DNA of 44,098 nt from a virus (taxonomy: Duplodnaviria > Heunggongvirae > Uroviricota > Caudoviricetes). The stretch lies in the IMG/VR virus record IMGVR_UViG_2585427657_000002. The stretch is one strand, 5' to 3'. Positions within the stretch are counted from its first letter, which is position 1; the number at the start of each line of letters is the position of its first letter. Positions 1,607 to 37,286 of the stretch are shown here, one piece after another. Under the pieces are notes generated by a model that was not told the origin of the DNA, did not search any database, and saw nothing but the letters and a program-made list of their open reading frames with translations. A program made the translations under genes and the position numbers.

Positions 1607-1664
1607 TATGGCACCTGTGTTGTTCTGAGGTGAGCATATCACCTCTGTTCAGGTGGCCAAATTC

Positions 1665-2018
1665 TGGCCACACTCACGTGGGTGGACTGGTATAACAATC
1701 GACGATTGCTGGAAAGGCAGGGCCATACTCCTCCGGCAGAAGCAGAAAAAGCTTATTATGCTTCCATCGGAAACGATGATCTGGCAGCCTGAGTTCACAG
1801 ATAAAACACTCTCCAGGAAACCCGGGGCGGTTCACAGTAAACCACTTCTGGCCACACTCACGTGGGTGGACTGGTATAACAATCGACGATTGCTGGAAAG
1901 GCAGGGCCATACTCCTCCGGCAGAAGCAGAAAAAGCTTATTATGCTTCCATCGGAAACGATGATCTGGCAGCCTGAGTTCACAGATAAAACACTCTCCAG
2001 GAAACCCGGGGCGGTTCA
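1665..2018 (+). repeat. Two tandem copies of a 170-bp IS3-type right-end fragment, separated by 14 bp
   Basis: 1665..1834 and 1849..2018 are identical; each encodes a transposase C-terminus (...LTWVDWYNNRRLLERQGHTPPAEAEKAYYASIGNDDLAA) and ends in ...CCCGGGGCGGTTCA, an IS3-type terminus. Confidence 0.7.
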
Positions 2019-4696: not shown

Positions 4697-5362
<666 letters not shown>

Positions 5363-10396: not shown

Positions 10397-10780
10397 ATGC
10401 GTGATATTCAGATGGTTCTTGAGCGTTGGGGTGCGTGGGCGGCTAATAATCATGAAGATGTGACCTGGTCGTCCATTGCCGCCGGTTTTAAGGGATTAAT
10501 TCCTTCAAAAGTAAAATCTCGCCCGCAATGTTGTGACGATGACGCGATGATCATTTGCGGGTGCATGGCCCGTCTGAAAAAGAACAACAGCGATTTACAC
10601 GATTTATTAGTAGATTATTATGTATGTGGTATGACATTCATGTCACTGGCAAGTAAGCATTGCTGCTCGGATGGTTATATCGGGAAAAGGTTACAGAAGG
10701 CTGAGGGCATAATTGAAGGGATGTTAATGGCATTAGATATCCGGTTAGATATGGATATCGTTGCTAATAATTCTAATTGA
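10397..10780 (+). CDS. Q: Late-gene antiterminator Q (phage 82 / DLP12 QuuD type)
   Basis: 127 aa from ATG 10397 (GGAG 7 nt upstream): [36 protein letters not shown]...; Cys-rich zinc-binding region. Confidence 0.85.
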
Positions 10781-10916
10781 TATGCAATTGTTTACTAAAA
10801 GTTATTAAAAATGGGGCGTGGAAACGCCCCCAAAATAAAGGGTAATATATAACAGAAGGTTTATATAGTAAGAAGCAAGGTAGTGCTTCTAAAGGAAGTG
10901 GCTTGAGGGCTCCACT

Positions 10917-10957
10917 TATATGTTGCGGAGGCAAAGCCTCCCGCAACATATCTTTTT
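10917..10957 (+). terminator. Intrinsic terminator between Q region and porin gene
   Basis: Near-perfect hairpin ATATGTTGCGGAGGC-AAA-GCCTCCCGCAACATAT followed by CTTTTT on the + strand. Confidence 0.6.
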
Positions 10958-10968
10958 CGTAAGTCAGA

Positions 10969-12051
10969 TTAGAACTGATAAACCAGACCTACAGCGACGA
11001 TGTCGTCGGTATCAATACCAGCTGTTTTGGTAAACTTACTATCGTCAATTAAGTTGATTTTGTAATCAACAAAAGTGGACATGTTTTTATTAAAGTAGTA
11101 AGTAGCACCGACATCGACATACTTGACTAAGTCTCGGTCACCATGAACACCAAGGTCTTTACCTTTTGACTGAAGGTAAGCAACAGATGGACGCAGACCG
11201 AAGTCAAACTGATATTGTGCTACTGCTTCAAAGTTTTGTGCTTTGTTTGCAATATGGTTATTACCAAAAACGGTCATATTCTGAGTTTCAGAATATGTGG
11301 TAGCCAGATAGATATTGTTCGCATCATATTTCAGGCCTGCAGCCCATACTTCCGCATTTTTGCCGGAGGCATTGAATTTGCTCTTACCATAGGCGACCTG
11401 ACCGTCAGTGCGATCTGATTTAGCATAGGTTGCACCCACGCCGAATCCTTCATACTCATAAGTAGTGGAGAAACCGAAACCATCACCATTGGCTTCAGTT
11501 ACGTCAGTGCGGTCATTTTTACCCTGATACTGAGCAGCAAAGTTCAGGCCATCGACCAGACCAAAGAAGTCGTTGTTACGATAAGTTGCAACACCAGTAG
11601 TGCGACCAGTCATGAACACATCTGTTTGGGTCCAGGTATCACCACCGAATTCTGGCAGAACGTCAGTCCACGCACCGATGTCGTATGCTACACCGTAGTT
11701 ACGGCCGTAATCGATTGAGCCGTAATCACCAAATTTCAGGCCTGCAAATGCAAGACGGGTTTTGTCTTTGGAAGAACCTTGAGATTCAGCACGGTTGCCT
11801 TTGAATTCATATTCCCACTGACCGAAACCAGTCAGTTGATCGTTGATTTGGGTTTCACCTTTGAAGCCAAGACGGGCATAAGTAGTATCACCATCATCTG
11901 CATCATTAGAGGAGAAGTAGTGCTTGGCATTAACTTTCCCGTATAGATCCAGCTTGTTACTGTCTTTATTATAAATTTCAGCTGCCTGAGCAGACATCGC
12001 CATCAGTACTGATGCAGCTACAGCAGAAATTGCCACTGTTAATTTTTTCAT
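10969..12051 (-). CDS. nmpC: Outer-membrane general porin, phage-encoded OmpC-family (NmpC/Lc type)
   Basis: Signal peptide [23 protein letters not shown] then AEIYNKD...; C-terminal ...VAVGLVYQF; opposite orientation to phage late genes. Start taken as ATG 12051, not the longer ORF-track start. Confidence 0.9.
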
Positions 12052-12477
12052 TGTACGCCCTTTTTTTGAACTTTTATTAAAAAATGATGTCACTGCGCGA
12101 TAAATATTCATCTAATCAATGTGATTATTTCAAGATGTAAGTTTTAGTTTCTCATTTAATTTGTGAAGTAGATCTCTATTTTTATCTGAACCTTTTCTAT
12201 CTAATCCTATTCATGGCTCTTGTCTGAACAAAAATAAATCTATTAGCTAATTTATATTAATGGCACTTATTTATAAGTGCTCTATAATTCTTTAGCTTAA
12301 TTTAAACAAACTAAAAATAACATCGGAAATTATTAACTGGTTATTTGTTGAAGTTTTCTTATGCATTTGTGGTGGTGTTTTGAACACTCGGTGGCATTCT
12401 CACAAATATCATTTAGTAGTTTACGTACGTAAAAAATTGGTTATGCTGTTAAGAGTGGTTACTTCGTCACACAGCTT

Positions 12478-12510
12478 AAACCCGCCGTCGAGCGGGTTTT
12501 TCCATTTTTT
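12478..12510 (+). terminator. Intrinsic terminator upstream of the lysis cassette (candidate tR')
   Basis: Hairpin CCCGC-CGTCGA-GCGGG followed by TTTTTCCATTTTTT, about 130 bp before the holin start. Confidence 0.55.
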
Positions 12511-12639
12511 GAGTCTCGATATTAGCTGATAACCCAATACCTGAGTTATTCACTGACTCCGAATCTGTTACGTTTCTGCCTTTATTGCGATACGTAGTAT
12601 CCCCTTAATTTACACCCGCTTTGTCTGCGAGGTGGGGTT

Positions 12640-12855
12640 ATGAAATCCATGGATAAGTTAACAACGGGTGTCGCCTATGGTACCTCAGCAGGTAGTGCCG
12701 GGTACTGGTTTTTACAGTTGCTCGATAAAGTCACGCCCTCACAGTGGGCGGCAATAGGTGTGCTGGGTAGCCTGGTATTTGGCCTGCTGACGTACCTGAC
12801 AAACCTTTATTTCAAGATTAAAGAAGATAAGCGCAAGGCTGCGAGAGGTGAATAA
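12640..12855 (+). CDS. S: Holin, phage-21 pinholin type
   Basis: 71 aa, [71 protein letters not shown]; two TM segments, dual-start motif MKSM. Confidence 0.9.
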
Positions 12856-13352
12856 TGCCTCCATCATTACGAAAAGCCGTTGCTGCTGCTATTGGTGGCG
12901 GAGCAATTGCTATAGCATCAGTGTTAATCACTGGCCCAAGTGGTAACGATGGTCTGGAAGGTGTCAGCTACATACCATACAAAGATATTGTTGGTGTATG
13001 GACTGTATGTCACGGGCATACAGGAAAAGACATCATGCTCGGTAAAACGTATACCAAAGCAGAATGCAAAGCCCTCCTGAATAAAGACCTTGCCACGGTC
13101 GCCAGACAAATTAACCCGTACATCAAAGTCGATATACCGGAAACAATGCGCGGCGCTCTTTACTCATTCGTTTACAACGTGGGTGCTGGCAATTTCAGAA
13201 CATCGACGCTTCTTCGCAAAATAAACCAGGGCGATATCAAAGGCGCATGTGATCAGCTACGTCGCTGGACATATGCTGGCGGTAAGCAATGGAAAGGTCT
13301 CATGACTCGTCGTGAGATTGAGCGTGAAATCTGTTTGTGGGGTCAGCAATGA
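12855..13352 (+). CDS. R: SAR endolysin (lysozyme with signal-anchor-release N-terminus)
   Basis: 165 aa; N-terminal weakly hydrophobic SAR segment [20 protein letters not shown] followed by lysozyme domain; overlaps holin stop. Confidence 0.9.
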
Positions 13353-13810
13353 ACAGAGTAACCGCGATTATCTCCGCTCTGGTTATCTGCATCATCGTCT
13401 GCCTGTCATGGGCTGTTAATCATTACCGTGATAACGCCATTACCTACAAAGCCCAGCGCGACAAAAATGCCAGAGAACTGACGCTGGCGAACGCGGCAAT
13501 TACTGACATACAGATGCGTCAGCGTGATGTTGCTGCGCTCGATGCAAAATACACGAAGGAGTTAGCTGATGCGAAAGCTGAAAATGATGCTCTGCGTGAT
13601 GATGTTGCCGCTGGTCGTCGTCGGTTGCACATCAAAGCAGTCTGTCAGTCAGTGCGTGAAGCCACCACCGCCTCCGGCGTGGATAATGCAGCCTCCCCCC
13701 GACTGGCAGACACCGCTGAACGGGATTATTTCACCCTCAGAGAGAGGCTGATCACTATGCAAAAACAACTGGAAGGAACCCAGAAGTATATTAATGAGCA
13801 GTGCAGATAG
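13349..13810 (+). CDS. Rz: Rz i-spanin
   Basis: 153 aa, [38 protein letters not shown]...; N-terminal TM then coiled-coil; ATGA overlap with R. Confidence 0.9.
13569..13751 (+). CDS. Rz1: Rz1 o-spanin lipoprotein, embedded in the +1 frame of Rz
   Basis: [20 protein letters not shown]... lipobox, proline-rich mature part; entirely nested within Rz. Confidence 0.85.
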
Positions 13811-13841
13811 AGCTGCCCATATCGATGGGCAACTCATGCAA

Positions 13842-14135
13842 TTATTGTGAGCAATACACACGCGCTTCCAGCGGAGTATAAATGCCTAAAGTAATAAAAC
13901 CGAGCAATCCATTTACGAATGTTTGCTGGGTTTCTGTTTTAACAACATTTTCTGCACCACCACAAATTTTTGCTGCATCGACAGTTTTCTTCTGCCCAAT
14001 TCCCGAAACGAAGAAATGATGGGTGATGGTTTCCTTTGGTGTTACTGCTGTAGGTTTGTTTCCAACAGTAAACGTCTGTTGAGCACATCCTGTAATAAGC
14101 ATTGCCAGAGCGGCAGAAAACAACATTTTTTTCAT
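13842..14135 (-). CDS. bor: Bor lipoprotein (serum-resistance moron)
   Basis: 97 aa from MKKMLFSAALAMLITGCAQQTFTV... (lipobox LITGC). Confidence 0.9.
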   Translation of the reverse strand: MKKMLFSAALAMLITGCAQQTFTVGNKPTAVTPKETITHHFFVSGIGQKKTVDAAKICGGAENVVKTETQQTFVNGLLGFITLGIYTPLEARVYCSQ

Positions 14136-14615
14136 CTTATTATCCTGCATTGTTAAAAACGGCAGAATCCTATGTGACAACAATTAAACGATAGTTAAAT
14201 GGATTGATGAAAATTAAAACTACACAGGTGGGCTCAGACTATTGGAGGAAGTTGGGGACACTCAGAATCCTGTGGAATGAAATAAACCGGTCTATCCGTC
14301 CATTACCCTTTTAGCTGCGCTGTATCGTCGCCGTATTCCCGCATTAACCATGACCGTAGCCCGACGGGGAATTCCTTCTGCGTGAGTGTGCGGGAATAAT
14401 TAAAAACGATGCACACCGGGTTTTTACCGCGTTAATGATTCGCGGGTTTATCCCGGTGCGATGGTGGAAGAAACAGGAAGCTGTATTACAGAAAGTGCTA
14501 CTACTGTATCCCGATGCGATGTATGTAATGTGAGTCAGATAATGGCACAGGATGTGGTGATGTGGCAGTCTGGAACACAGGATATATTGTCAGAATAAGA
14601 CCCGTAGGAATAAAA

Positions 14616-14942
14616 ATGAAAAGACGCCTTTTACTACTTTTTCTGTTATCTGTCCTGGCAGTGGGATGCTCGCAGCAAAAAGCTGATGAGCCCCGGCAAT
14701 TAGTGACGGTGTATCCACGATATCCGGAATATGCTGCAGCAAATTATATCAAGGGGCTGGTTGAGGTTAAGTTCGATATTGGTGCTGATGGGACTGTGAC
14801 ACGGATCGTTTTTCTCCGCTCAGAGCCTCATAATTTGTTTCGTGATGAAGTGGTGAAGGCCATGGCGAAATGGCGATTTGAAAAGAATCGCCCCTGTCAG
14901 GGAGTGAAGAGACAATTTATCTTTACGCCGTCACGTCCTTGA
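14616..14942 (+). CDS. Lipoprotein with TonB C-terminal-like domain (moron)
   Basis: MKRRLLLLFLLSVLAVGCSQQ signal/lipobox, then VYPRYPEYAAANYIKGLVEVKFDIGADGTVTRIVFLRSEPHNLFRDEVVKAMAKWRFE, which matches the TonB_C pattern (YP..A...G.V.V.F.I..DG.V..I.......F...V..A...WR). Confidence 0.7.
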   Translation: MKRRLLLLFLLSVLAVGCSQQKADEPRQLVTVYPRYPEYAAANYIKGLVEVKFDIGADGTVTRIVFLRSEPHNLFRDEVVKAMAKWRFEKNRPCQGVKRQFIFTPSRP

Positions 14943-15064
14943 TGCTTCCAGGTAGAGAGGGGCTGGAAGCAGGAGAAAAATGAAAGAGCCAGCGGTTATA
15001 TTTTTGTCATGGCTGACGAGGAATGATGGAAGAAGGCGTTGTATGCCACACAACGCCTCACTGT

Positions 15065-15418
15065 TCATTTCTTCTTTTTCTCTGGTGGAACCCGATGAAT
15101 AAGAGTTGCACTGGTTTCCGATGAGATGGCGATATACTCGGGCAAAGTATGCTGGCAGTTTTCCAACTGGTCAAAAATACCTGCTCTCGTCTGTTGCAAT
15201 GCCTGCAGCATGCGGCGGCAATGCGCCTTGCTTTTACTAACCATCTTTCCTTCCTCTATCAGTCGCTGCGTGAACTCATCATGGAATACCAGGTAAATGC
15301 GGATGTTATCGGTTTTGGCTACGCAGCATAGTACAAAACGGACAGGTGCATCCCGGGACGGGGGAGGCGTCACATGTCCCTGTGATGGTTGTTCCGGGTA
15401 ATGTACTGTGTGGGGCAT
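15065..15418 (-). CDS. Hypothetical ORF (117 aa), coding status uncertain
   Basis: Open frame only; overlaps the small secretory ORF 15306..15557 and a + strand 60-aa ORF; identical copy at 19418..19771. Confidence 0.25.
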   Translation of the reverse strand: MPHTVHYPEQPSQGHVTPPPSRDAPVRFVLCCVAKTDNIRIYLVFHDEFTQRLIEEGKMVSKSKAHCRRMLQALQQTRAGIFDQLENCQHTLPEYIAISSETSATLIHRVPPEKKKK

Positions 15419-15557
15419 AAAAATGTCCGATAATTTTACTTTCTACCGCAGTTAGTTGATTCGTTGGTCCTGGTAGCACATTGGGCGAGGATTTAAATGC
15501 CAGGCAACTGAAGGATGATGTCGCAAGGGAGATAGCGAGAATATTTCTGATTTTCAT
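15306..15557 (-). CDS. Small predicted secreted Cys-rich protein (83 aa)
   Basis: MKIRNILAISLATSSFSCLA-FKSS signal peptide; mature part has four Cys (C..C.C..C near the C-terminus); identical copy at 19659..19910. Confidence 0.3.
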   Translation of the reverse strand: MKIRNILAISLATSSFSCLAFKSSPNVLPGPTNQLTAVESKIIGHFYAPHSTLPGTTITGTCDASPVPGCTCPFCTMLRSQNR

Positions 15558-15705
15558 TTGATGATGCCTCTGTGTGAAATGACGGTAAACGACGCACTTG
15601 TGCCGGCACATAATAGCAAGCACCATAATAGATCAGATTCGATTCTTGCTGTAAGTGATAATTATTCTCGTTTTCGGGTCCTTTCCGTCGATCCAACAGG
15701 TTACG

Positions 15706-15717
15706 GGGCGGCGACCT
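15706..15717 (+). other. cos: cosN cohesive-end site GGGCGGCGACCT (copy 1)
   Basis: ...ATCCAACAGGTTACG|GGGCGGCGACCT|CGCGG... matches the lambda right-end/left-end junction as recalled; cosB-like inverted GTCCGACATGAAAG / CATGTCGGGC elements lie between it and Nu1. Confidence 0.85.
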
Positions 15718-15893
15718 CGCGGTTTTTCACTATTTATGAAAATTTTTCAGGGAAAATCGTGTCGGTACTTCTCGAATATAACTTTTTGTTTTTTTTAATA
15801 TTGCATCCGTAAAGGTCCGACATGAAAGTGTCCGAAAATGCCTTTTTCTGGCGTTTTCATGTCGGGCCTTGTATTTGATAATGGGTTGTTTTC

Positions 15894-16158
15894 ATGAAGG
15901 TTAATAAAAAGAGGCTTGCCGAAATTTTCAACGTGGACCCGCGGACGATTGAACGCTGGCAGTCTCAGGGACTCCCTTGCGCCTCCAAAGGTAGTAAGGG
16001 CATTGAATCTGTATTTGATACTGCCATGGCAATTCAGTGGTATGCGCAGAGGGAAACTGATATCGAAAACGAAAAGCTCCGCAAAGAACTGGACGATTTG
16101 CGTGCGGCAGCGGAGTCAGATTTACAACCCGGCACCATTGACTATGAACGCTACCGGC
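15894..16158 (+). pseudogene. nu1: Terminase small subunit Nu1, 5' copy truncated after codon ~88 by a rearrangement junction
   Basis: [33 protein letters not shown]...TIDYERYR then sequence switches to the reverse complement of the porin upstream region. Confidence 0.7.
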
Positions 16159-16323
16159 ACATCTTGAAATAATCACATTGATTAGATGAATATTTATCGC
16201 GCAGTGACATCATTTTTTAATAAAAGTTCAAAAAAAGGGCGTACAATGAAAAAATTAACAGTGGCAATTTCTGCTGTAGCTGCATCAGTACTGATGGCGA
16301 TGTCTGCTCAGGCAGCTGAAATT
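16159..16323. repeat. Fold-back arm: reverse complement of 11974..12138 forming a perfect palindrome with 16327..16491
   Basis: 16159..16323 reads as the exact reverse complement of the porin 5' end and upstream region; symmetry centre at about 16325 (GCTGAAATT-ATA-AATTTCAGC). Confidence 0.85.
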
Positions 16324-16830
16324 ATAAATTTCAGCTGCCTGAGCAGACATCGCCATCAGTACTGATGCAGCTACAGCAGAAATTGCCACTGTTAATTTTT
16401 TCATTGTACGCCCTTTTTTTGAACTTTTATTAAAAAATGATGTCACTGCGCGATAAATATTCATCTAATCAATGTGATTATTTCAAGATGTAAGTTTTAG
16501 TTTCTCATTTAATTTGTGAAGTAGATCTCTATTTTTATCTGAACCTTTTCTATCTAATCCTATTCATGGCTCTTGTCTGAACAAAAATAAATCTATTAGC
16601 TAATTTATATTAATGGCACTTATTTATAAGTGCTCTATAATTCTTTAGCTTAATTTAAACAAACTAAAAATAACATCGGAAATTATTAACTGGTTATTTG
16701 TTGAAGTTTTCTTATGCATTTGTGGTGGTGTTTTGAACACTCGGTGGCATTCTCACAAATATCATTTAGTAGTTTACGTACGTAAAAAATTGGTTATGCT
16801 GTTAAGAGTGGTTACTTCGTCACACAGCTT

Positions 16831-16863
16831 AAACCCGCCGTCGAGCGGGTTTTTCCATTTTTT
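16831..16863 (+). terminator. Duplicate of terminator 12478..12510
   Basis: Identical sequence at offset +4353. Confidence 0.5.
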
Positions 16864-16992
16864 GAGTCTCGATATTAGCTGATAACCCAATACCTGAGTT
16901 ATTCACTGACTCCGAATCTGTTACGTTTCTGCCTTTATTGCGATACGTAGTATCCCCTTAATTTACACCCGCTTTGTCTGCGAGGTGGGGTT

Positions 16993-17208
16993 ATGAAATC
17001 CATGGATAAGTTAACAACGGGTGTCGCCTATGGTACCTCAGCAGGTAGTGCCGGGTACTGGTTTTTACAGTTGCTCGATAAAGTCACGCCCTCACAGTGG
17101 GCGGCAATAGGTGTGCTGGGTAGCCTGGTATTTGGCCTGCTGACGTACCTGACAAACCTTTATTTCAAGATTAAAGAAGATAAGCGCAAGGCTGCGAGAG
17201 GTGAATAA
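16993..17208 (+). CDS. S: Holin (duplicate copy)
   Basis: Identical to 12640..12855. Confidence 0.85.
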
Positions 17209-17705
17209 TGCCTCCATCATTACGAAAAGCCGTTGCTGCTGCTATTGGTGGCGGAGCAATTGCTATAGCATCAGTGTTAATCACTGGCCCAAGTGGTAAC
17301 GATGGTCTGGAAGGTGTCAGCTACATACCATACAAAGATATTGTTGGTGTATGGACTGTATGTCACGGGCATACAGGAAAAGACATCATGCTCGGTAAAA
17401 CGTATACCAAAGCAGAATGCAAAGCCCTCCTGAATAAAGACCTTGCCACGGTCGCCAGACAAATTAACCCGTACATCAAAGTCGATATACCGGAAACAAT
17501 GCGCGGCGCTCTTTACTCATTCGTTTACAACGTGGGTGCTGGCAATTTCAGAACATCGACGCTTCTTCGCAAAATAAACCAGGGCGATATCAAAGGCGCA
17601 TGTGATCAGCTACGTCGCTGGACATATGCTGGCGGTAAGCAATGGAAAGGTCTCATGACTCGTCGTGAGATTGAGCGTGAAATCTGTTTGTGGGGTCAGC
17701 AATGA
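17208..17705 (+). CDS. R: SAR endolysin (duplicate copy)
   Basis: Identical to 12855..13352. Confidence 0.85.
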
Positions 17706-18163
17706 ACAGAGTAACCGCGATTATCTCCGCTCTGGTTATCTGCATCATCGTCTGCCTGTCATGGGCTGTTAATCATTACCGTGATAACGCCATTACCTAC
17801 AAAGCCCAGCGCGACAAAAATGCCAGAGAACTGACGCTGGCGAACGCGGCAATTACTGACATACAGATGCGTCAGCGTGATGTTGCTGCGCTCGATGCAA
17901 AATACACGAAGGAGTTAGCTGATGCGAAAGCTGAAAATGATGCTCTGCGTGATGATGTTGCCGCTGGTCGTCGTCGGTTGCACATCAAAGCAGTCTGTCA
18001 GTCAGTGCGTGAAGCCACCACCGCCTCCGGCGTGGATAATGCAGCCTCCCCCCGACTGGCAGACACCGCTGAACGGGATTATTTCACCCTCAGAGAGAGG
18101 CTGATCACTATGCAAAAACAACTGGAAGGAACCCAGAAGTATATTAATGAGCAGTGCAGATAG
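17702..18163 (+). CDS. Rz: Rz i-spanin (duplicate copy)
   Basis: Identical to 13349..13810. Confidence 0.85.
17922..18104 (+). CDS. Rz1: Rz1 o-spanin (duplicate copy)
   Basis: Identical to 13569..13751. Confidence 0.8.
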
Positions 18164-18194
18164 AGCTGCCCATATCGATGGGCAACTCATGCAA

Positions 18195-18488
18195 TTATTG
18201 TGAGCAATACACACGCGCTTCCAGCGGAGTATAAATGCCTAAAGTAATAAAACCGAGCAATCCATTTACGAATGTTTGCTGGGTTTCTGTTTTAACAACA
18301 TTTTCTGCACCACCACAAATTTTTGCTGCATCGACAGTTTTCTTCTGCCCAATTCCCGAAACGAAGAAATGATGGGTGATGGTTTCCTTTGGTGTTACTG
18401 CTGTAGGTTTGTTTCCAACAGTAAACGTCTGTTGAGCACATCCTGTAATAAGCATTGCCAGAGCGGCAGAAAACAACATTTTTTTCAT
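18195..18488 (-). CDS. bor: Bor lipoprotein (duplicate copy)
   Basis: Identical to 13842..14135. Confidence 0.85.
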   Translation of the reverse strand: MKKMLFSAALAMLITGCAQQTFTVGNKPTAVTPKETITHHFFVSGIGQKKTVDAAKICGGAENVVKTETQQTFVNGLLGFITLGIYTPLEARVYCSQ

Positions 18489-18968
18489 CTTATTATCCTG
18501 CATTGTTAAAAACGGCAGAATCCTATGTGACAACAATTAAACGATAGTTAAATGGATTGATGAAAATTAAAACTACACAGGTGGGCTCAGACTATTGGAG
18601 GAAGTTGGGGACACTCAGAATCCTGTGGAATGAAATAAACCGGTCTATCCGTCCATTACCCTTTTAGCTGCGCTGTATCGTCGCCGTATTCCCGCATTAA
18701 CCATGACCGTAGCCCGACGGGGAATTCCTTCTGCGTGAGTGTGCGGGAATAATTAAAAACGATGCACACCGGGTTTTTACCGCGTTAATGATTCGCGGGT
18801 TTATCCCGGTGCGATGGTGGAAGAAACAGGAAGCTGTATTACAGAAAGTGCTACTACTGTATCCCGATGCGATGTATGTAATGTGAGTCAGATAATGGCA
18901 CAGGATGTGGTGATGTGGCAGTCTGGAACACAGGATATATTGTCAGAATAAGACCCGTAGGAATAAAA

Positions 18969-19295
18969 ATGAAAAGACGCCTTTTACTACTTTTTCTGTT
19001 ATCTGTCCTGGCAGTGGGATGCTCGCAGCAAAAAGCTGATGAGCCCCGGCAATTAGTGACGGTGTATCCACGATATCCGGAATATGCTGCAGCAAATTAT
19101 ATCAAGGGGCTGGTTGAGGTTAAGTTCGATATTGGTGCTGATGGGACTGTGACACGGATCGTTTTTCTCCGCTCAGAGCCTCATAATTTGTTTCGTGATG
19201 AAGTGGTGAAGGCCATGGCGAAATGGCGATTTGAAAAGAATCGCCCCTGTCAGGGAGTGAAGAGACAATTTATCTTTACGCCGTCACGTCCTTGA
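18969..19295 (+). CDS. TonB-C-like lipoprotein (duplicate copy)
   Basis: Identical to 14616..14942. Confidence 0.65.
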   Translation: MKRRLLLLFLLSVLAVGCSQQKADEPRQLVTVYPRYPEYAAANYIKGLVEVKFDIGADGTVTRIVFLRSEPHNLFRDEVVKAMAKWRFEKNRPCQGVKRQFIFTPSRP

Positions 19296-20058
19296 TGCTT
19301 CCAGGTAGAGAGGGGCTGGAAGCAGGAGAAAAATGAAAGAGCCAGCGGTTATATTTTTGTCATGGCTGACGAGGAATGATGGAAGAAGGCGTTGTATGCC
19401 ACACAACGCCTCACTGTTCATTTCTTCTTTTTCTCTGGTGGAACCCGATGAATAAGAGTTGCACTGGTTTCCGATGAGATGGCGATATACTCGGGCAAAG
19501 TATGCTGGCAGTTTTCCAACTGGTCAAAAATACCTGCTCTCGTCTGTTGCAATGCCTGCAGCATGCGGCGGCAATGCGCCTTGCTTTTACTAACCATCTT
19601 TCCTTCCTCTATCAGTCGCTGCGTGAACTCATCATGGAATACCAGGTAAATGCGGATGTTATCGGTTTTGGCTACGCAGCATAGTACAAAACGGACAGGT
19701 GCATCCCGGGACGGGGGAGGCGTCACATGTCCCTGTGATGGTTGTTCCGGGTAATGTACTGTGTGGGGCATAAAAATGTCCGATAATTTTACTTTCTACC
19801 GCAGTTAGTTGATTCGTTGGTCCTGGTAGCACATTGGGCGAGGATTTAAATGCCAGGCAACTGAAGGATGATGTCGCAAGGGAGATAGCGAGAATATTTC
19901 TGATTTTCATTTGATGATGCCTCTGTGTGAAATGACGGTAAACGACGCACTTGTGCCGGCACATAATAGCAAGCACCATAATAGATCAGATTCGATTCTT
20001 GCTGTAAGTGATAATTATTCTCGTTTTCGGGTCCTTTCCGTCGATCCAACAGGTTACG

Positions 20059-20070
20059 GGGCGGCGACCT
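20059..20070 (+). other. cos: cosN (copy 2)
   Basis: Identical to 15706..15717 with the same flanks. Confidence 0.8.
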
Positions 20071-20246
20071 CGCGGTTTTTCACTATTTATGAAAATTTTT
20101 CAGGGAAAATCGTGTCGGTACTTCTCGAATATAACTTTTTGTTTTTTTTAATATTGCATCCGTAAAGGTCCGACATGAAAGTGTCCGAAAATGCCTTTTT
20201 CTGGCGTTTTCATGTCGGGCCTTGTATTTGATAATGGGTTGTTTTC

Positions 20247-20795
20247 ATGAAGGTTAATAAAAAGAGGCTTGCCGAAATTTTCAACGTGGACCCGCGGACG
20301 ATTGAACGCTGGCAGTCTCAGGGACTCCCTTGCGCCTCCAAAGGTAGTAAGGGCATTGAATCTGTATTTGATACTGCCATGGCAATTCAGTGGTATGCGC
20401 AGAGGGAAACTGATATCGAAAACGAAAAGCTCCGCAAAGAACTGGACGATTTGCGTGCGGCAGCGGAGTCAGATTTACAACCCGGCACCATTGACTATGA
20501 ACGCTACCGGCTCACAAAAGCGCAGGCAGATGCGCAGGAACTGAAAAATGCCCGTGAAGACGGAGTAGTGCTGGAAACTGAACTGTTTACCTTCATTCTG
20601 CAACGTGTGGCACAGGAGATTTCGGGGATACTTGTGCGTGTGCCGTTGACATTACAGCGTAAATATCCGGACATTTCACCATCACACCTTGATGTGGTGA
20701 AAACTGAAATCGCGAAAGCCTCCAATGTTGCAGCTAAGGCCGGTGAAAACGTGGGCGGGTGGATCGATGATTTCAGACGCGCAGAAGGCAGCTAA
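20247..20795 (+). CDS. nu1: Terminase small subunit Nu1 (full length, in duplicated copy B)
   Basis: 182 aa; ...[54 protein letters not shown]...; winged-helix N-terminus. Confidence 0.85.
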
Positions 20796-21358
20796 TGCAG
20801 CCGGTGCGATAGCTACAGGGCTTTTATCTCTCATTATTCCTGTTCCACTGACGACAGTTCAGTGGGCCAATAAACATTATTACCTTCCTAAAGAGTCGTC
20901 TTATACCCCGGGGCGATGGGAAACACTGCCGTTTCAGGTTGGCATCATGAACTGTATGGGCAACGATCTGATTCGCACGGTTAACCTGATTAAATCTGCC
21001 CGTGTTGGTTATACAAAGATGTTGCTGGGAGTGGAGGCTTATTTTATTGAGCATAAATCACGCAACAGCCTTCTTTTTCAGCCCACGGACTCAGCTGCTG
21101 AAGATTTTATGAAATCTCATGTTGAGCCAACGATAAGGGATGTTCCTGCATTGCTGGAGCTGGCTCCATGGTTCGGAAGAAAACACCGCGATAATACGCT
21201 CACCCTGAAGCGTTTTTCCTCCGGTGTGGGGTTCTGGTGTCTGGGTGGTGCGGCAGCAAAAAACTACCGTGAAAAATCCGTGGATGTGGTCTGTTATGAC
21301 GAGCTTTCCTCGTTCGAACCGGATGTTGAAAAAGAGGGTTCGCCAACCCTGCTGGGGG
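20725..21358 (+). pseudogene. A: Terminase large subunit A, 5' fragment ending at a rearrangement junction
   Basis: Identical to the first ~210 codons of 22889..24859, then joins sequence equivalent to 15426 onward (...PTLLG then GTCCGATAATTTTAC...). Confidence 0.7.
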
Positions 21359-21638
21359 TCCGATAATTTTACTTTCTACCGCAGTTAGTTGATTCGTTGG
21401 TCCTGGTAGCACATTGGGCGAGGATTTAAATGCCAGGCAACTGAAGGATGATGTCGCAAGGGAGATAGCGAGAATATTTCTGATTTTCATTTGATGATGC
21501 CTCTGTGTGAAATGACGGTAAACGACGCACTTGTGCCGGCACATAATAGCAAGCACCATAATAGATCAGATTCGATTCTTGCTGTAAGTGATAATTATTC
21601 TCGTTTTCGGGTCCTTTCCGTCGATCCAACAGGTTACG

Positions 21639-21650
21639 GGGCGGCGACCT
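21639..21650 (+). other. cos: cosN (copy 3)
   Basis: Identical 12-mer and flanks. Confidence 0.8.
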
Positions 21651-21826
21651 CGCGGTTTTTCACTATTTATGAAAATTTTTCAGGGAAAATCGTGTCGGTA
21701 CTTCTCGAATATAACTTTTTGTTTTTTTTAATATTGCATCCGTAAAGGTCCGACATGAAAGTGTCCGAAAATGCCTTTTTCTGGCGTTTTCATGTCGGGC
21801 CTTGTATTTGATAATGGGTTGTTTTC

Positions 21827-22092
21827 ATGAAGGTTAATAAAAAGAGGCTTGCCGAAATTTTCAACGTGGACCCGCGGACGATTGAACGCTGGCAGTCTCA
21901 GGGACTCCCTTGCGCCTCCAAAGGTAGTAAGGGCATTGAATCTGTATTTGATACTGCCATGGCAATTCAGTGGTATGCGCAGAGGGAAACTGATATCGAA
22001 AACGAAAAGCTCCGCAAAGAACTGGACGATTTGCGTGCGGCAGCGGAGTCAGATTTACAACCCGGCACCATTGACTATGAACGCTACCGGCT
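21827..22092 (+). pseudogene. nu1: Nu1 5' fragment (third copy), truncated after codon ~88
   Basis: ...TIDYERYRL then joins sequence equivalent to 15576 onward. Confidence 0.7.
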
Positions 22093-22222
22093 GAAATGAC
22101 GGTAAACGACGCACTTGTGCCGGCACATAATAGCAAGCACCATAATAGATCAGATTCGATTCTTGCTGTAAGTGATAATTATTCTCGTTTTCGGGTCCTT
22201 TCCGTCGATCCAACAGGTTACG

Positions 22223-22234
22223 GGGCGGCGACCT
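22223..22234 (+). other. cos: cosN (copy 4, the one contiguous with the intact packaging/head operon)
   Basis: Identical 12-mer and flanks, about 190 bp upstream of the intact Nu1 at 22411. Confidence 0.85.
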
Positions 22235-22410
22235 CGCGGTTTTTCACTATTTATGAAAATTTTTCAGGGAAAATCGTGTCGGTACTTCTCGAATATAACT
22301 TTTTGTTTTTTTTAATATTGCATCCGTAAAGGTCCGACATGAAAGTGTCCGAAAATGCCTTTTTCTGGCGTTTTCATGTCGGGCCTTGTATTTGATAATG
22401 GGTTGTTTTC

Positions 22411-35513: not shown

Positions 35514-35839
35514 AAACCTTCCGCTGGAAAGTGAAACCCGGGATGGATGTGACATCGGCTCCTTCCGTCAGGGAGGTGCGCTTTGGTGATGGCTATTCCC
35601 AGCGTGCGCCTGCCGGGCTGAACGCTGACCTGAAAACGTACAGCGTGACGCTGTCTGTCTCCCGTGAGGAGGCCACGGCGCTGGAGTCGTTTCTGGCTGA
35701 GCACGGGGGCTGGAAGGCCTTTCTGTGGACGCCGCCTTATGGTTACAGGCAGATAAAGGTGACCTGCGCAAAATGGTCGTCGCGGGTCAGTATGCTGCGT
35801 GTTGAGTTCAGCGCAGAGTTTGAACAGGTGGTGAACTGA
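35510..35839 (+). CDS. M: Tail tip protein M
   Basis: 109 aa, MKTFRWKVKPGMDVTSAPSVREVRFGDGYSQRAPAGLNADLKTYSV... Confidence 0.9.
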   Translation: MKTFRWKVKPGMDVTSAPSVREVRFGDGYSQRAPAGLNADLKTYSVTLSVSREEATALESFLAEHGGWKAFLWTPPYGYRQIKVTCAKWSSRVSMLRVEFSAEFEQVVN

Positions 35840-36537
35840 TGCAGGATATCCGGCAGGAAACATTGAATGAATGCACCCGTGCGGAGCAGTCGGCCAGCGT
35901 GGTGCTCTGGGAAATCGATCTGACAGAGGTCGGTGGAGAACGTTATTTTTTCTGTAATGAGCAGAACGAAAAAGGTGAGCCGGTCACCTGGCAGGGGCGA
36001 CAGTATCAGCCGTATCCCATTCAGGGGAGTAGTTTTGAACTGAATGGCAAAGGCACCAGTACGCGCCCCACGCTGACGGTTTCTAACCTGTACGGTATGG
36101 TCACCGGGATGGTGGAAGATCTGCAGAGTCTGGTCGGCGGAACGGTGGTCAGGCGTAAGGTTTACGCCCGTTTTCTGGATGCGGTGAACTTCGTCAACGG
36201 AAACAGCGACGCCGATCCGGAGCAGGAGGTGATCAGCCGCTGGCGCATCGAGCAGTGCAGCGAACTGAGTGCGGTCAGTGCCTCCTTTGTACTGTCCACA
36301 CCGACGGAAACGGATGGTGCCGTTTTTCCGGGGCGCATCATGCTGGCTAATACCTGCACCTGGACCTATCGCGGTGATGAGTGCGGTTATCACGGTCCGG
36401 CGGTCGCGGATGAATATGATCAGCCGACTTCCGATATCACGAAGGATAAATGCAGCAAATGCCTGAGCGGCTGTAAGTTTCGCAATAACGTCGGCAACTT
36501 TGGCGGCTTCCTTTCCATTAACAAACTTTCGCAGTAA
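35839..36537 (+). CDS. L: Tail tip protein L
   Basis: 232 aa; C-terminal Cys cluster (KCSKCLSGCKF). Confidence 0.9.
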   Translation: MQDIRQETLNECTRAEQSASVVLWEIDLTEVGGERYFFCNEQNEKGEPVTWQGRQYQPYPIQGSSFELNGKGTSTRPTLTVSNLYGMVTGMVEDLQSLVGGTVVRRKVYARFLDAVNFVNGNSDADPEQEVISRWRIEQCSELSAVSASFVLSTPTETDGAVFPGRIMLANTCTWTYRGDECGYHGPAVADEYDQPTSDITKDKCSKCLSGCKFRNNVGNFGGFLSINKLSQ

Positions 36538-36542
36538 ATCCC

Positions 36543-37286
36543 ATGACAGAGACAGAATCAGCGATTCTGGCGCATGCCCGGCGATGTGCGCCAGCGGAGT
36601 CGTGCGGCTTCGTGGTGAGAGCGCCGGAGGGGGAAAGATATTTTCCCTGCGTGAATATCTCCGGTGAGCCGGAGGCGTATTTCCGGATGGCTCCGGAGGA
36701 CTGGCTGCAGGCAGAGATGCAGGGTGAGATTGTGGCGCTGGTCCACAGTCATCCCGGTGGTCTGCCCTGGCTGAGTGAGGCCGACCGGCGGCTGCAGGTG
36801 CAGAGTGATTTGCCGTGGTGGCTGGTCTGCCGGGGGGCGATTCATAAGTTCCGCTGTGTGCCGCATCTCACCGGGCGGCGCTTTGAGCACGGGGTGACGG
36901 ACTGTTACACGCTGTTCCGGGACGCTTACCATCTGGCGGGGATTGAGATGCCGGACTTTCATCGTGAGGATGACTGGTGGCGTAACGGCCAGAATCTCTA
37001 TCTTGATAATCTGGAGGCCACAGGGCTGTATCAGGTGCCGTTGTCAGCGGCGCAGCCGGGCGATGTGCTGCTGTGCTGCTTTGGTTCATCGGTGCCGAAT
37101 CATGCCGCTATTTACTGTGGTGACGGCGAGCTGCTGCACCATATTCCTGAACAACTGAGTAAACGAGAGAGGTATACCGACAAATGGCAGCGACGCACAC
37201 ACTCCCTCTGGCGTCACCGGGCATGGCGCGCATCTGCCTTTACGGGGATTTACAACGATTTGGCCGCCGCATCGACCTTCGTGTGA
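36543..37286 (+). CDS. K: Tail tip assembly protein K (JAB/MPN plus NlpC/P60-like)
   Basis: 247 aa; ...VALVHSHPGG... and ...GVTDCYTLFRDAYHLAG... motifs. Confidence 0.9.
   Translation: MTETESAILAHARRCAPAESCGFVVRAPEGERYFPCVNISGEPEAYFRMAPEDWLQAEMQGEIVALVHSHPGGLPWLSEADRRLQVQSDLPWWLVCRGAIHKFRCVPHLTGRRFEHGVTDCYTLFRDAYHLAGIEMPDFHREDDWWRNGQNLYLDNLEATGLYQVPLSAAQPGDVLLCCFGSSVPNHAAIYCGDGELLHHIPEQLSKRERYTDKWQRRTHSLWRHRAWRASAFTGIYNDLAAASTFV

Follow-up and report, generated by a model that had tools for sequence, protein, structure and literature searches.

The NmpC/Lc porin module of lambdoid phages has been known since the 1980s. Its classical example is Lc of phage PA-2, a phage-borne general porin that is expressed in the lysogen, carries an ipeX-type 3'UTR and constitutes the classical case of porin lysogenic conversion. 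In PA-2 lysogens OmpC is down-regulated and the receptor is lost. Reviews are the source for this down-regulation and receptor loss (PMC12197685, PMC5069750), and IpeX is a 167-nt RNA of DLP12 origin, made within the porin transcript, that controls OmpC (PMC12197685; also PMC5069750). The DLP12 (qsr') prophage of E. coli K-12 has the order rusA-ylcG-quuD, nmpC on the opposite strand, then essD-rrrD-rzpD-borD. There IS5 splits nmpC 58 nt ahead of the stop codon, and the gene carries a pseudogene annotation. The Q gene and the site at which Q acts are described in other phages. In Stx phages pR' lies just downstream of Q (PMC6266700), and an account of the Q21 system has the protein binding direct repeats of TGAGCA between -35 and -10 (PMC6606751). 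The gene considered here, its position, the disrupted K-12 version and the regulatory 3'UTR are already known from textbooks and reviews, and the exact allele is in public records.

The locus lies in a 44,098-nt stretch of viral DNA, which was analysed as a whole and is called the window below; its features are collected in Table 1. The interval 10781..12639 is the exact gap between the stop codon of the Q gene (10780) and the start codon of the holin gene (12640), and it is filled by a porin gene on the opposite strand, as the original prediction had it. The suggested comparison with the DLP12 nmpC region revealed the same gene order, a module about 91% identical and an identical pR'-tR' block, with the porin gene broken in K-12 but intact here. 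The 2.6-kb module is 100% identical to that of phages ev017 and PhiR57_1 and to that of the prophage next to icd in E. coli Nissle 1917 and CFT073. Of the 5426 complete E. coli genomes, 2392 (about 44%) contain at least 80% of the module. The element has the properties of an NmpC/Lc moron, namely the slot between Q and lysis genes, opposite orientation, nmpC-related flanks and an IpeX-type 3'UTR ahead of a terminator. We consider it very probable that it is an intact allele of the NmpC/Lc-type porin moron of DLP12/PA-2-like lambdoid prophages, and that its expression and the late transcription around it follow the model set out below.

Table 1. Features of the porin module and its surroundings (positions are those of the window).
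Feature	Position	Strand	Basis
Q antiterminator gene (quuD allele, 127 aa)	10397..10780	+	Pfam PF06530 Phage_antitermQ, E 7.7e-54
Intrinsic terminator of the porin transcript: stem 10830..10813, then AUUUUUAAUAACUUUU	10803..10830	-	Terminator scan, fold
Structured 3'UTR of the porin mRNA, IpeX small-RNA homologue	10803..10968	-	Alignment to K-12, fold
Long hairpin, then CUUUUUCG	10918..10958	+	Folds of both strands
Porin gene (NmpC/Lc/OmpD-type general porin, 360 aa)	10969..12051	-	ORF, profile and structure alignments
Part of the porin gene coding for the signal peptide	11983..12051	-	Alignment to mature OmpC chains
Porin 5' leader and AT-rich upstream DNA, putative porin promoter region	12052..12380	-	GC content, conservation
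Proposed late promoter pR'	12420..12447	+	Homology to annotated pR' features of 933W/24B
Short pR' leader and tR' terminator (stem 12478..12499, then UUCCAUUUUUU)	12448..12510	+	Terminator scan, fold
Lysis cassette: holin essD 12640..12855, lysozyme rrrD 12855..13352, Rz rzpD 13337..13810	12640..13810	+	Pfam, annotation
Second, partial copy of the module	16159..20510		Repeat search, BLAST against the Nissle locus, junction sequences

The open reading frame of the porin spans 12111..10969 in total. Translation probably starts at the ATG at 12051 (MKKLTVAIS...); by direct reading AAGGG precedes this codon by 6-7 nt, and the coding sequence that it opens is 1083 nt long. The ATG at 12111 would give a 380-aa product and was rejected because it has no ribosome-binding site and places 20 extra residues ahead of a normal signal peptide. 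This upstream start is the one used in many database entries of 385 aa. The 360-aa product covers positions 1-337 of the 337 of the Pfam Porin_1 profile (PF00267; E 1.9e-151), and its residues 24-360 align with whole mature OmpC crystal chains, from first residue to last, in structures such as 2XE2 and 2J1N. Because the OmpC chain alignment starts at residue 24, the signal peptide is 23 aa long and ends in AQA|AE. The PEFGGD motif of the constriction loop (L3) and the C-terminus ...GLVYQF, with its final Phe, are present in translation and alignment. Neither translation nor the full-length alignments revealed a frameshift or internal stop. The predicted complete OmpC-family porin with a signal peptide thus withstood the check for disruption. 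From its family membership, the product is expected to form a trimeric outer-membrane diffusion channel.

The protein is identical to RefSeq WP_000737271.1, occurs in its exact sequence on at least 1000 contigs, and is the allele carried by CFT073. Among named proteins it is closest to NmpC and 'porin protein LC', with which it shares 90-94% identity. Database proteins named NmpC are 90-91% identical, as are those labelled 'outer membrane porin protein LC', a name that is also attached to the exact sequence. The likeness to PA-2 Lc rests on these automatically annotated 'LC' labels rather than on the PA-2 sequence. Together with the shared K-12 layout, these matches agree with the original assignment to lysogenic-conversion genes of the PA-2 Lc/DLP12 nmpC kind. 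Salmonella enterica OmpD is 79% identical, with the same Pfam family, length and architecture. OmpD and OmpC are, however, core chromosomal genes, whereas the porin here is carried by a prophage and has flanks and a 3'UTR that are specific to the phage. RefSeq gives the gene the name ompC and the product 'porin OmpC', which would make it the host chromosomal gene and not phage cargo. That is almost certainly wrong, as quuD and essD of a lambdoid prophage flank the gene, phages that were isolated and sequenced carry it, and its best named matches are NmpC and Lc. The label 'ompC' is misleading for this gene. Among relatives of at least 80% identity, amino acid variation clusters in short blocks, which are taken to be surface loops without being mapped onto a structure, and the L3 constriction-loop region is conserved. 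Judged from the alignment, conserved L3 and block-limited variation make up the pattern that would be expected under selection.

Downstream of its stop codon the porin gene has a structured 3'UTR of about 165 nt that went unrecognised in the original prediction. The 241 aligned nucleotides of 10760..11000, which include the 3'UTR, show 96% mean column identity to the K-12 DNA between the nmpC stop and quuD, that is, to the IpeX region. The 3'UTR folds into four stem-loops and a terminator at -54.1 kcal/mol (z = -5.5; none of 200 shuffles was equally stable). Scanned against Rfam at gathering thresholds, the whole window gave no hit, so no curated RNA family matches this 3'UTR or the pR' leader. 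The transcript's own terminator has a 7-bp GC-rich stem and a U-run on the - strand only, and is conserved in K-12 DLP12. By its pattern, a - strand hairpin followed by a U-run, this is the terminator that a moron is expected to bring with it.

The original prediction had the porin bracketed by intrinsic terminators at 10917..10957 and 12478..12510. Both hairpins exist at roughly these coordinates, but the roles given to them do not hold. The hairpin at 10917..10957 cannot be the intrinsic terminator of the porin because a U-run follows the hairpin (~10918..10951) on the + strand alone; the actual - strand terminator had not been listed. The other is a + strand terminator, tR', on the 5' side of the porin and downstream of pR'. 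Read on the + strand, 10918..10958 is terminator-like for transcription leaving Q, and its - strand version is the first stem-loop of the porin 3'UTR. The terminator scan missed this hairpin, probably owing to a one-base bulge in the stem. It is kept in K-12, with differences at one stem position (G/C) and one loop position. The + strand terminator lies nearer the porin and the - strand terminator nearer Q. Each transcript would extend beyond the end of the other, so that the IpeX 3'UTR would be perfectly complementary to the tail of the Q/early-right transcript over about 150 nt. Such an overlap could couple porin/IpeX expression in the lysogen to the fate of the Q mRNA, and hence to the late-gene threshold. 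After induction the coupling could run in reverse.

The Q gene is annotated quuD in Nissle, CFT073 and K-12. Its product is 76% identical to Q of 933W and has a distant match to the phage 21 Q structures 6P18/6JNX (E 4e-8); all compared Q proteins belong to PF06530. For late transcription, the original prediction had left two alternatives, a promoter placed so that late transcription crosses the porin gene antisense or a pR' within 12112..12480. Homology favors the second. DNA homologous to the pR'-tR' block of 933W and 24B, with its -10 element, leader and terminator, spans 12417..12501, past the porin. The 933W feature 'promoter, homologous to pR'' and the 24B feature 'pR putative late promoter', both themselves annotated 'putative', are the homologues of the proposed promoter, and 12478..12510 aligns with the annotated tR' of both phages. 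The elements are a -35 TTTACG (12420..12425), a 16-nt spacer and a -10 TATGCT (12442..12447). They match the consensus weakly (8/12 positions) and were not listed by the consensus promoter scan. The block also occurs in SfII, phiP27 and Stx2a_1447 and is invariant in five porin-carrying modules, and seven phages share the conserved leader core TAAGAGTGGTTAC..CAC.CAG..AACCCGCCG. By homology and pattern, the order of promoter, short leader and intrinsic terminator ahead of the late genes is present. We therefore propose pR' at 12420..12447 and, at 12478..12510, the late-operon terminator that Q would override.

With pR' placed downstream of the porin, late transcription initiated there would not cross the porin gene. 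That pR' directly follows Q in most lambdoid phages speaks for a late promoter next to Q, from which Q-modified transcription would cross the porin antisense before reaching the holin. This arrangement is very improbable here: the porin 3'UTR takes up the 188 nt that follow the Q stop codon, and these have no homology to the pR'-tR' block, which lies beyond the porin and ends in a + strand terminator followed by the holin. In 933W, Q and pR' are directly adjacent and the promoter overlaps the end of Q, whereas here a 1.64-kb porin cassette separates them; the flanks of the moron are thus found joined in another phage. Other phages have other genes near this position. SfII has two - strand ORFs between Q and pR', for which a Pfam search found no family. 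phiP27 has a GIY-YIG nuclease gene between Q and pR'. Stx2a_1447 has - strand ORFs immediately upstream of the pR' block, a position seen relative to the block alone and not to Q. Beyond tR' is the lysis cassette, with matches to Phage_holin_2_1, Phage_lysozyme and Phage_lysis and with an embedded Rz1.

Direct reading of 12400..12460 found no TGAGCA, the direct repeat of the Q21 system; instead, the -35 region holds a 14-bp palindrome, TTTACGTACGTAAA (12420..12433). QuuD presumably uses a binding site other than TGAGCA repeats. The corresponding palindrome reads TTTACGATCGTAAA in 933W, GCGTACGC in SfII and GGAATTCC in phiP27. It thus differs among phages with differing Q, while leader and tR' stay conserved. 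In this Q subfamily the palindrome, rather than direct repeats as for Q21, could confer specificity for Q. Both ideas, the coupling of porin and Q transcripts through their overlap and the palindrome as specificity element, are read from the sequence only and strike us as quite unlikely. As far as we could trace, the literature contains no prior description of the convergent transcript overlap or of the pR' palindrome.

How the porin itself is transcribed has to be judged from its upstream DNA. GC content drops from about 0.5 in the flanks to 0.245 in 12100..12299, and is 0.245-0.30 across the whole leader and upstream region, in line with the AT-rich DNA originally noted beside the gene. A consensus scan found no sigma-70 promoter for the porin on the - strand. 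The segment 12052..12250 is almost invariant among the five modules, whose overall identity is only 90-93%, and the conserved AT-rich leader is compatible with a porin promoter. The sole consensus-scan match in the intergenic DNA is on the + strand, ATGGCA-17-TATAAT at 12260..12288, with a conserved TATAAT. It was considered as pR' and rejected, since homology to the Stx-phage pR' begins only at ~12417, and what precedes this point in 933W codes for Q; it remains a candidate promoter with no assigned role. An isolated hit to the DNA upstream of the porin, seen in other genomes, is only a decayed DLP12 remnant beside emrE-ybcL-ybcM.

The gene might be intact but effectively silent, held 'quiescent' by nucleoid proteins on its AT-rich promoter, in which case ordinary conditions would bring no porin conversion and the gene would persist only by hitch-hiking. 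The upstream composition of 24-30% GC and the lack of a clear sigma-70 promoter would fit, and the literature cites nmpC of E. coli B as quiescent. However, the nmpC genes of CFT073, a bearer of the exact allele, are strongly induced at 37 C relative to 23 C and highly expressed there as both RNA and protein (PMC12890032). The locus tags in that study, c1560 and c2348, do not necessarily correspond to the porin copy described here. The conservation of the leader and promoter region, higher than that of the coding sequence among the 90-93% identical modules, and the restriction of amino acid variation to presumed surface loops with L3 conserved likewise argue against silence, which we consider unlikely. 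A tie to host regulation comes from nmpC mRNA, a reported target of RybB (PMC3333887).

The window contains a second, partial copy of the module. The segment 16159..16323 is an inverted copy of 11974..12138, comprising the porin 5' end and leader, and 16321..20510 is a direct repeat of 11968..16158 that carries the first 84 nt of the porin coding sequence (11968..12051), the promoter region, pR'/tR' and the lysis genes. This odd fold-back duplication begins within the porin 5' end, and its junction is spanned by no complete E. coli genome. The breakpoints were considered as a phage cos site and rejected; they fall ~265 nt (88 codons) into the gene for the terminase small subunit and not upstream of it.

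Taken together, these observations favor a model in which the porin moron sits between Q and the pR'-tR' block on which Q acts, and is oriented opposite to phage transcription. In the lysogen, as literature on the same family suggests, the porin would be transcribed alone from a promoter in the AT-rich DNA at ~12052..12380. The transcript would comprise the 1083-nt coding sequence and the structured 3'UTR and end at the - strand terminator 10830..10803. By analogy with the same family, the product would be exported to the outer membrane and assemble there as a 16-strand, trimeric general porin, and the IpeX RNA of the 3'UTR would lower host OmpC and OmpF synthesis. Porin and IpeX would thereby exchange the cell's porin set, altering permeability and removing OmpC as a phage receptor. 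Late transcription, by homology, would start at pR' and stop at tR' unless Q modifies the polymerase, which would then continue into essD-rrrD-rzpD. Early-right transcription through Q would meet the + strand terminator-like hairpin, and only terminator-resistant, N-modified polymerase would be expected to run antisense over the porin.

The porin moron is real but ordinary. The map of its surroundings is corrected, with late promoter and terminator downstream of the porin and a porin terminator different from those originally proposed. Its practical relevance comes from its carrier, a prophage of the Nissle 1917/CFT073 type. With a prophage porin whose synthesis rises at body temperature and an RNA that reduces OmpC and OmpF, antibiotic entry would change, as would serum and phage susceptibility and the antigenicity of a probiotic (Nissle) and of a uropathogen (CFT073).

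The interval 10781..12639 exactly fills the gap between the Q stop codon and the holin start codon, and its single long open reading frame (12111..10969) lies on the minus strand, which agrees with the original prediction of an opposite-strand porin gene at this site. The ATG at 12111 was rejected as the start, since only the ATG at 12051 has a ribosome-binding site (AAGGG, 6-7 nt upstream); the latter is the biologically sensible and likely start. The product of 360 aa spans positions 1-337 of the 337 of the Pfam Porin_1 profile (E 1.9e-151) and aligns with the whole chain of mature OmpC crystal structures from residue 24, therefore leaving a 23-residue signal peptide ending AQA/AE. These two full-length matches bear out a complete OmpC-family porin with a signal peptide. 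Alignment found neither a frameshift nor an internal stop in the porin frame, two of the outcomes named beforehand as refuting. PEFGGD, the motif of the constriction loop, is also present, and the C-terminal residue is Phe. Across 73 relatives with 80% identity or more, the variable residues group into seven short blocks (roughly 48-56, 86-95, 181-187, 216-232, 262-267, 298-306 and 335-347) and region 120-160, which holds the constriction loop, is conserved, suggesting the usual diversification of porin surface loops. Codons 4-6 (window 12030..12044, minus-strand mRNA ...AACAGUGGC...) contain CAGUGGC, complementary to the 5' end of the small RNA RybB (GCCACUG...), a candidate pairing. RybB is reported to target nmpC mRNA (PMC3333887).

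Features of the porin module and its surroundings
Feature	Position	Strand	Description
Q antiterminator gene	10397..10780	+	mechanical ORF from 10382; Pfam PF06530, E 7.7e-54
Porin intrinsic terminator	10813..10830	-	GC-rich 7-bp stem; then AUUUUUAAUAACUUUU on -, CAAAAUAAA on +
Q-side hairpin	10918..10951	+	stem of about 15 bp; then CUUUUUCG on +, AAGUGGAGCC on -
Porin gene	10969..12051	-	NmpC/Lc-type; likely start at 12051
pR' (proposed)	12420..12447	+	-35 TTTACG 12420..12425, 16-nt spacer, -10 TATGCT 12442..12447; by alignment
tR' (proposed)	12478..12510	+	homology to 933W/24B block and hairpin pattern
tR' hairpin	12478..12499	+	then UUCCAUUUUUU on +; upstream of porin 5' end
Holin gene	12640..12855	+	phage 21-type S holin; then lysozyme gene and Rz gene
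Bor/Iss homologue	13842..14183	-	serum-resistance lipoprotein; mechanical ORF 113 aa, RefSeq CDS 97 aa
TonB-family protein gene	14562..14942	+	small; next gene after Bor/Iss in the window

The segment 10300..12900 (2.6 kb) matches phages ev017 and PhiR57_1 and the icd-adjacent prophage of E. coli Nissle 1917 at 100% identity; at least 80% of it is found in 36 phage records and in 2392 of 5426 complete E. coli genomes. An identical protein is present in CFT073 (WP_000737271.1), and the exact porin sequence occurs on at least 1000 contigs, where it is called 'porin OmpC' or 'outer membrane porin protein LC'. Among named proteins, NmpC and LC come closest (90-94% identity); Salmonella OmpD is at 79%. 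Comparison with the nmpC region of DLP12, a cryptic K-12 prophage, revealed the same layout of rusA, ylcG, quuD and opposite-strand nmpC, then essD, rrrD, rzpD and borD, but nmpC of K-12 is split by IS5 whereas the window porin is uninterrupted. Because of this distribution, layout and protein similarity, we assign the element on sequence grounds to the classical NmpC/Lc porin moron, as an uninterrupted allele. All testable defining features of that moron were found in the window, and the element is already known.

The original prediction left two placements for the late promoter pR': either late transcription crosses the porin gene antisense, or pR' lies in 12112..12480. When the DNA between porin and holin was used in a sensitive nucleotide search, 12417..12501 matched, at 76-94% identity, a short homologous segment in many Stx and other lambdoid phages. 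This segment directly follows the Q gene in the Stx phages 933W and 24B. It is annotated in 933W as 'promoter, homologous to pR'' and 'terminator, homologous to tR'', and in 24B as 'pR putative late promoter', 'qut' and a rho-independent terminator. In Stx phages, pR' lies just downstream of Q, and the Q utilisation site is partly between -35 and -10 (PMC6266700). A leader core, TAAGAGTGGTTAC..CAC.CAG..AACCCGCCG....CGGGTTTTT, is conserved in 933W, 24B, SfII, phiP27, Stx2a_1447 and K-12; the Q proteins of 933W, SfII and phiP27 are all PF06530, 76%, 48% and 48% identical to that of the window. In five porin-carrying modules otherwise 90-93% identical, 12420..12494 is invariant, and the pR'-tR' block as a whole varies at just a single base, on the 3' arm of the tR' stem, where two of the five differ. 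The proposed pR' matches only 8 of 12 consensus positions and was unlisted by a consensus promoter scan. Homology to the 933W/24B block, together with the hairpin pattern, favors the second placement, and the first is very unlikely because that block lies downstream of the porin. We conclude from these alignments that pR' and tR' most plausibly occupy the tabulated positions and that late transcription would not cross the porin gene. The AT-rich spacer also holds a plus-strand promoter-like site at 12260..12288 (ATGGCA-17-TATAAT, 10 of 12 consensus positions), whose TATAAT is invariant in the five diverged modules and the bases beside it variable.

Q and pR' abut in 933W, whereas in the window a 1.64 kb porin cassette lies in between. 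In SfII (35581..37195) the same position holds two minus-strand ORFs of about 194 and 340 aa, for which a Pfam search returned no family. Similar minus-strand ORFs lie just upstream of the pR'-tR' block of Stx2a_1447 (where the position of Q was not located), and in phiP27 a GIY-YIG nuclease gene fills the slot. The SfII and Stx2a_1447 ORFs appear to be uncharacterised cargo, and the Q-pR' gap a recurrent insertion slot. Since Q and pR' are adjacent in relatives, the porin has the neighbors of a moron, and it has its own terminator, the minus-strand hairpin. The DNA upstream is AT-rich (24-30% GC), as originally proposed, with 12052..12250 nearly invariant, and may hold the porin promoter, but a scan of the minus strand for consensus promoters gave no match. 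A second opposite-strand cargo gene, the Bor/Iss homologue, follows the lysis genes, with the TonB-family gene beyond it.

The three hairpins flanking the porin gene were each folded on both strands to assign direction. As a terminator, the Q-side hairpin would serve only transcription leaving Q. The tR' hairpin is not a porin terminator, because it acts on the plus strand and lies upstream of the porin 5' end. The gene is thus not bracketed by terminators at 10917..10957 and 12478..12510, as had been proposed, and its true terminator was missing from that list. The roughly 165 nt from the porin stop codon (10969) to this minus-strand terminator fold into four stem-loops plus the terminator at -54.1 kcal/mol (shuffle mean -31.9; z = -5.5), and a 241-nt alignment across the 3'UTR is 96% identical to K-12 DNA between the nmpC stop and quuD. 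The 3'UTR is thereby the probable location of IpeX, the small RNA of the DLP12 nmpC 3'UTR; there is no Rfam model for it. IpeX is described as a 167-nt RNA of DLP12 that arises from the porin transcript and controls OmpC (PMC12197685). The plus-strand terminator for Q transcripts is nearer the porin and the minus-strand porin terminator nearer Q (10803..10958). Because each lies nearer the other gene, Q and porin/IpeX transcripts running toward each other would share about 150 nt of complementary overlap, the whole IpeX region, an arrangement that may be new.

The phage 21 Q binding element, direct repeats of TGAGCA, is absent from 12400..12460, the sole family feature not found. QuuD, a distant relative of Q21 (E 4e-8), presumably recognizes something else. 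In the -35 region of the proposed pR' (12420..12433), a short, perfectly palindromic sequence precedes an A-run: TTTACGTACGTAAA in the window, TTTACGATCGTAAA in 933W, GCGTACGC in SfII and Stx2a_1447, and GGAATTCC in phiP27. Its sequence changes with the Q allele from phage to phage while the leader and tR' stay conserved, raising the possibility that it is a Q-specificity site; this candidate may be new.

The window and the Nissle prophage are not collinear. Within the porin 5' end begins a fold-back duplication, with 16159..16323 (porin 5' end and leader, inverted) the reverse complement of 11974..12138 and forming a 165-nt perfect palindrome with 16327..16491 around a 3-nt spacer. From 16321 to 20510, 11968..16158 is repeated exactly, from the porin start and promoter region through pR'/tR', essD, rrrD, rzpD and bor/iss onward. 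The left junction, 16158, shows no microhomology and leaves about 88 codons of the terminase small-subunit gene; a search of 5426 complete E. coli genomes found the fold-back junction spanned in none. A stretch that runs from just before this terminase gene into it is present in four copies (15425..15874, 19778..20227, 21358..21807, 21942..22391), and breakpoints 21358 and 22092 reuse almost the same nu1 site (...CTACCGGC, then T) as 16158. Either the duplication is a genuine inverted one, or it is a chimera from long-read sequencing or amplification. Compared with Nissle 1917, the window shows no substitutions over 14 kb but carries six single-C insertions within 110 bp (5104..5213) of a LexA-family (CI-like) repressor gene, one additional T in a run of Ts and an AGGTC insertion of 5 bp (5443, 8078). 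The repressor-gene insertions would locally scramble the reading frame and look like sequencing errors; they and the fold-back look like assembly or amplification artefacts. Two copies of a 173-nt segment from the end of an IS3-family element lie in 1662..2018, at a spacing of 184 nt, where Nissle has one.

Lysogens of PA-2, a lambdoid phage with the Lc porin, make Lc and lose OmpC, which is the PA-2 receptor. The window holds an intact exportable porin gene, an IpeX-type 3'UTR with a minus-strand terminator, pR'/tR' downstream of the porin, and a plus-strand terminator-like hairpin between Q and porin. IpeX represses ompC and ompF (PMC5069750), lowering OmpC/OmpF according to the literature. 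At 37 C the nmpC genes of CFT073, a strain with this allele, are strongly expressed compared with 23 C, both as RNA and as protein (PMC12890032); these genes may include the present copy. After induction, the porin gene could be crossed antisense only by early transcription resistant to terminators, and in the lysogen the cassette would swap the porin set of the host.
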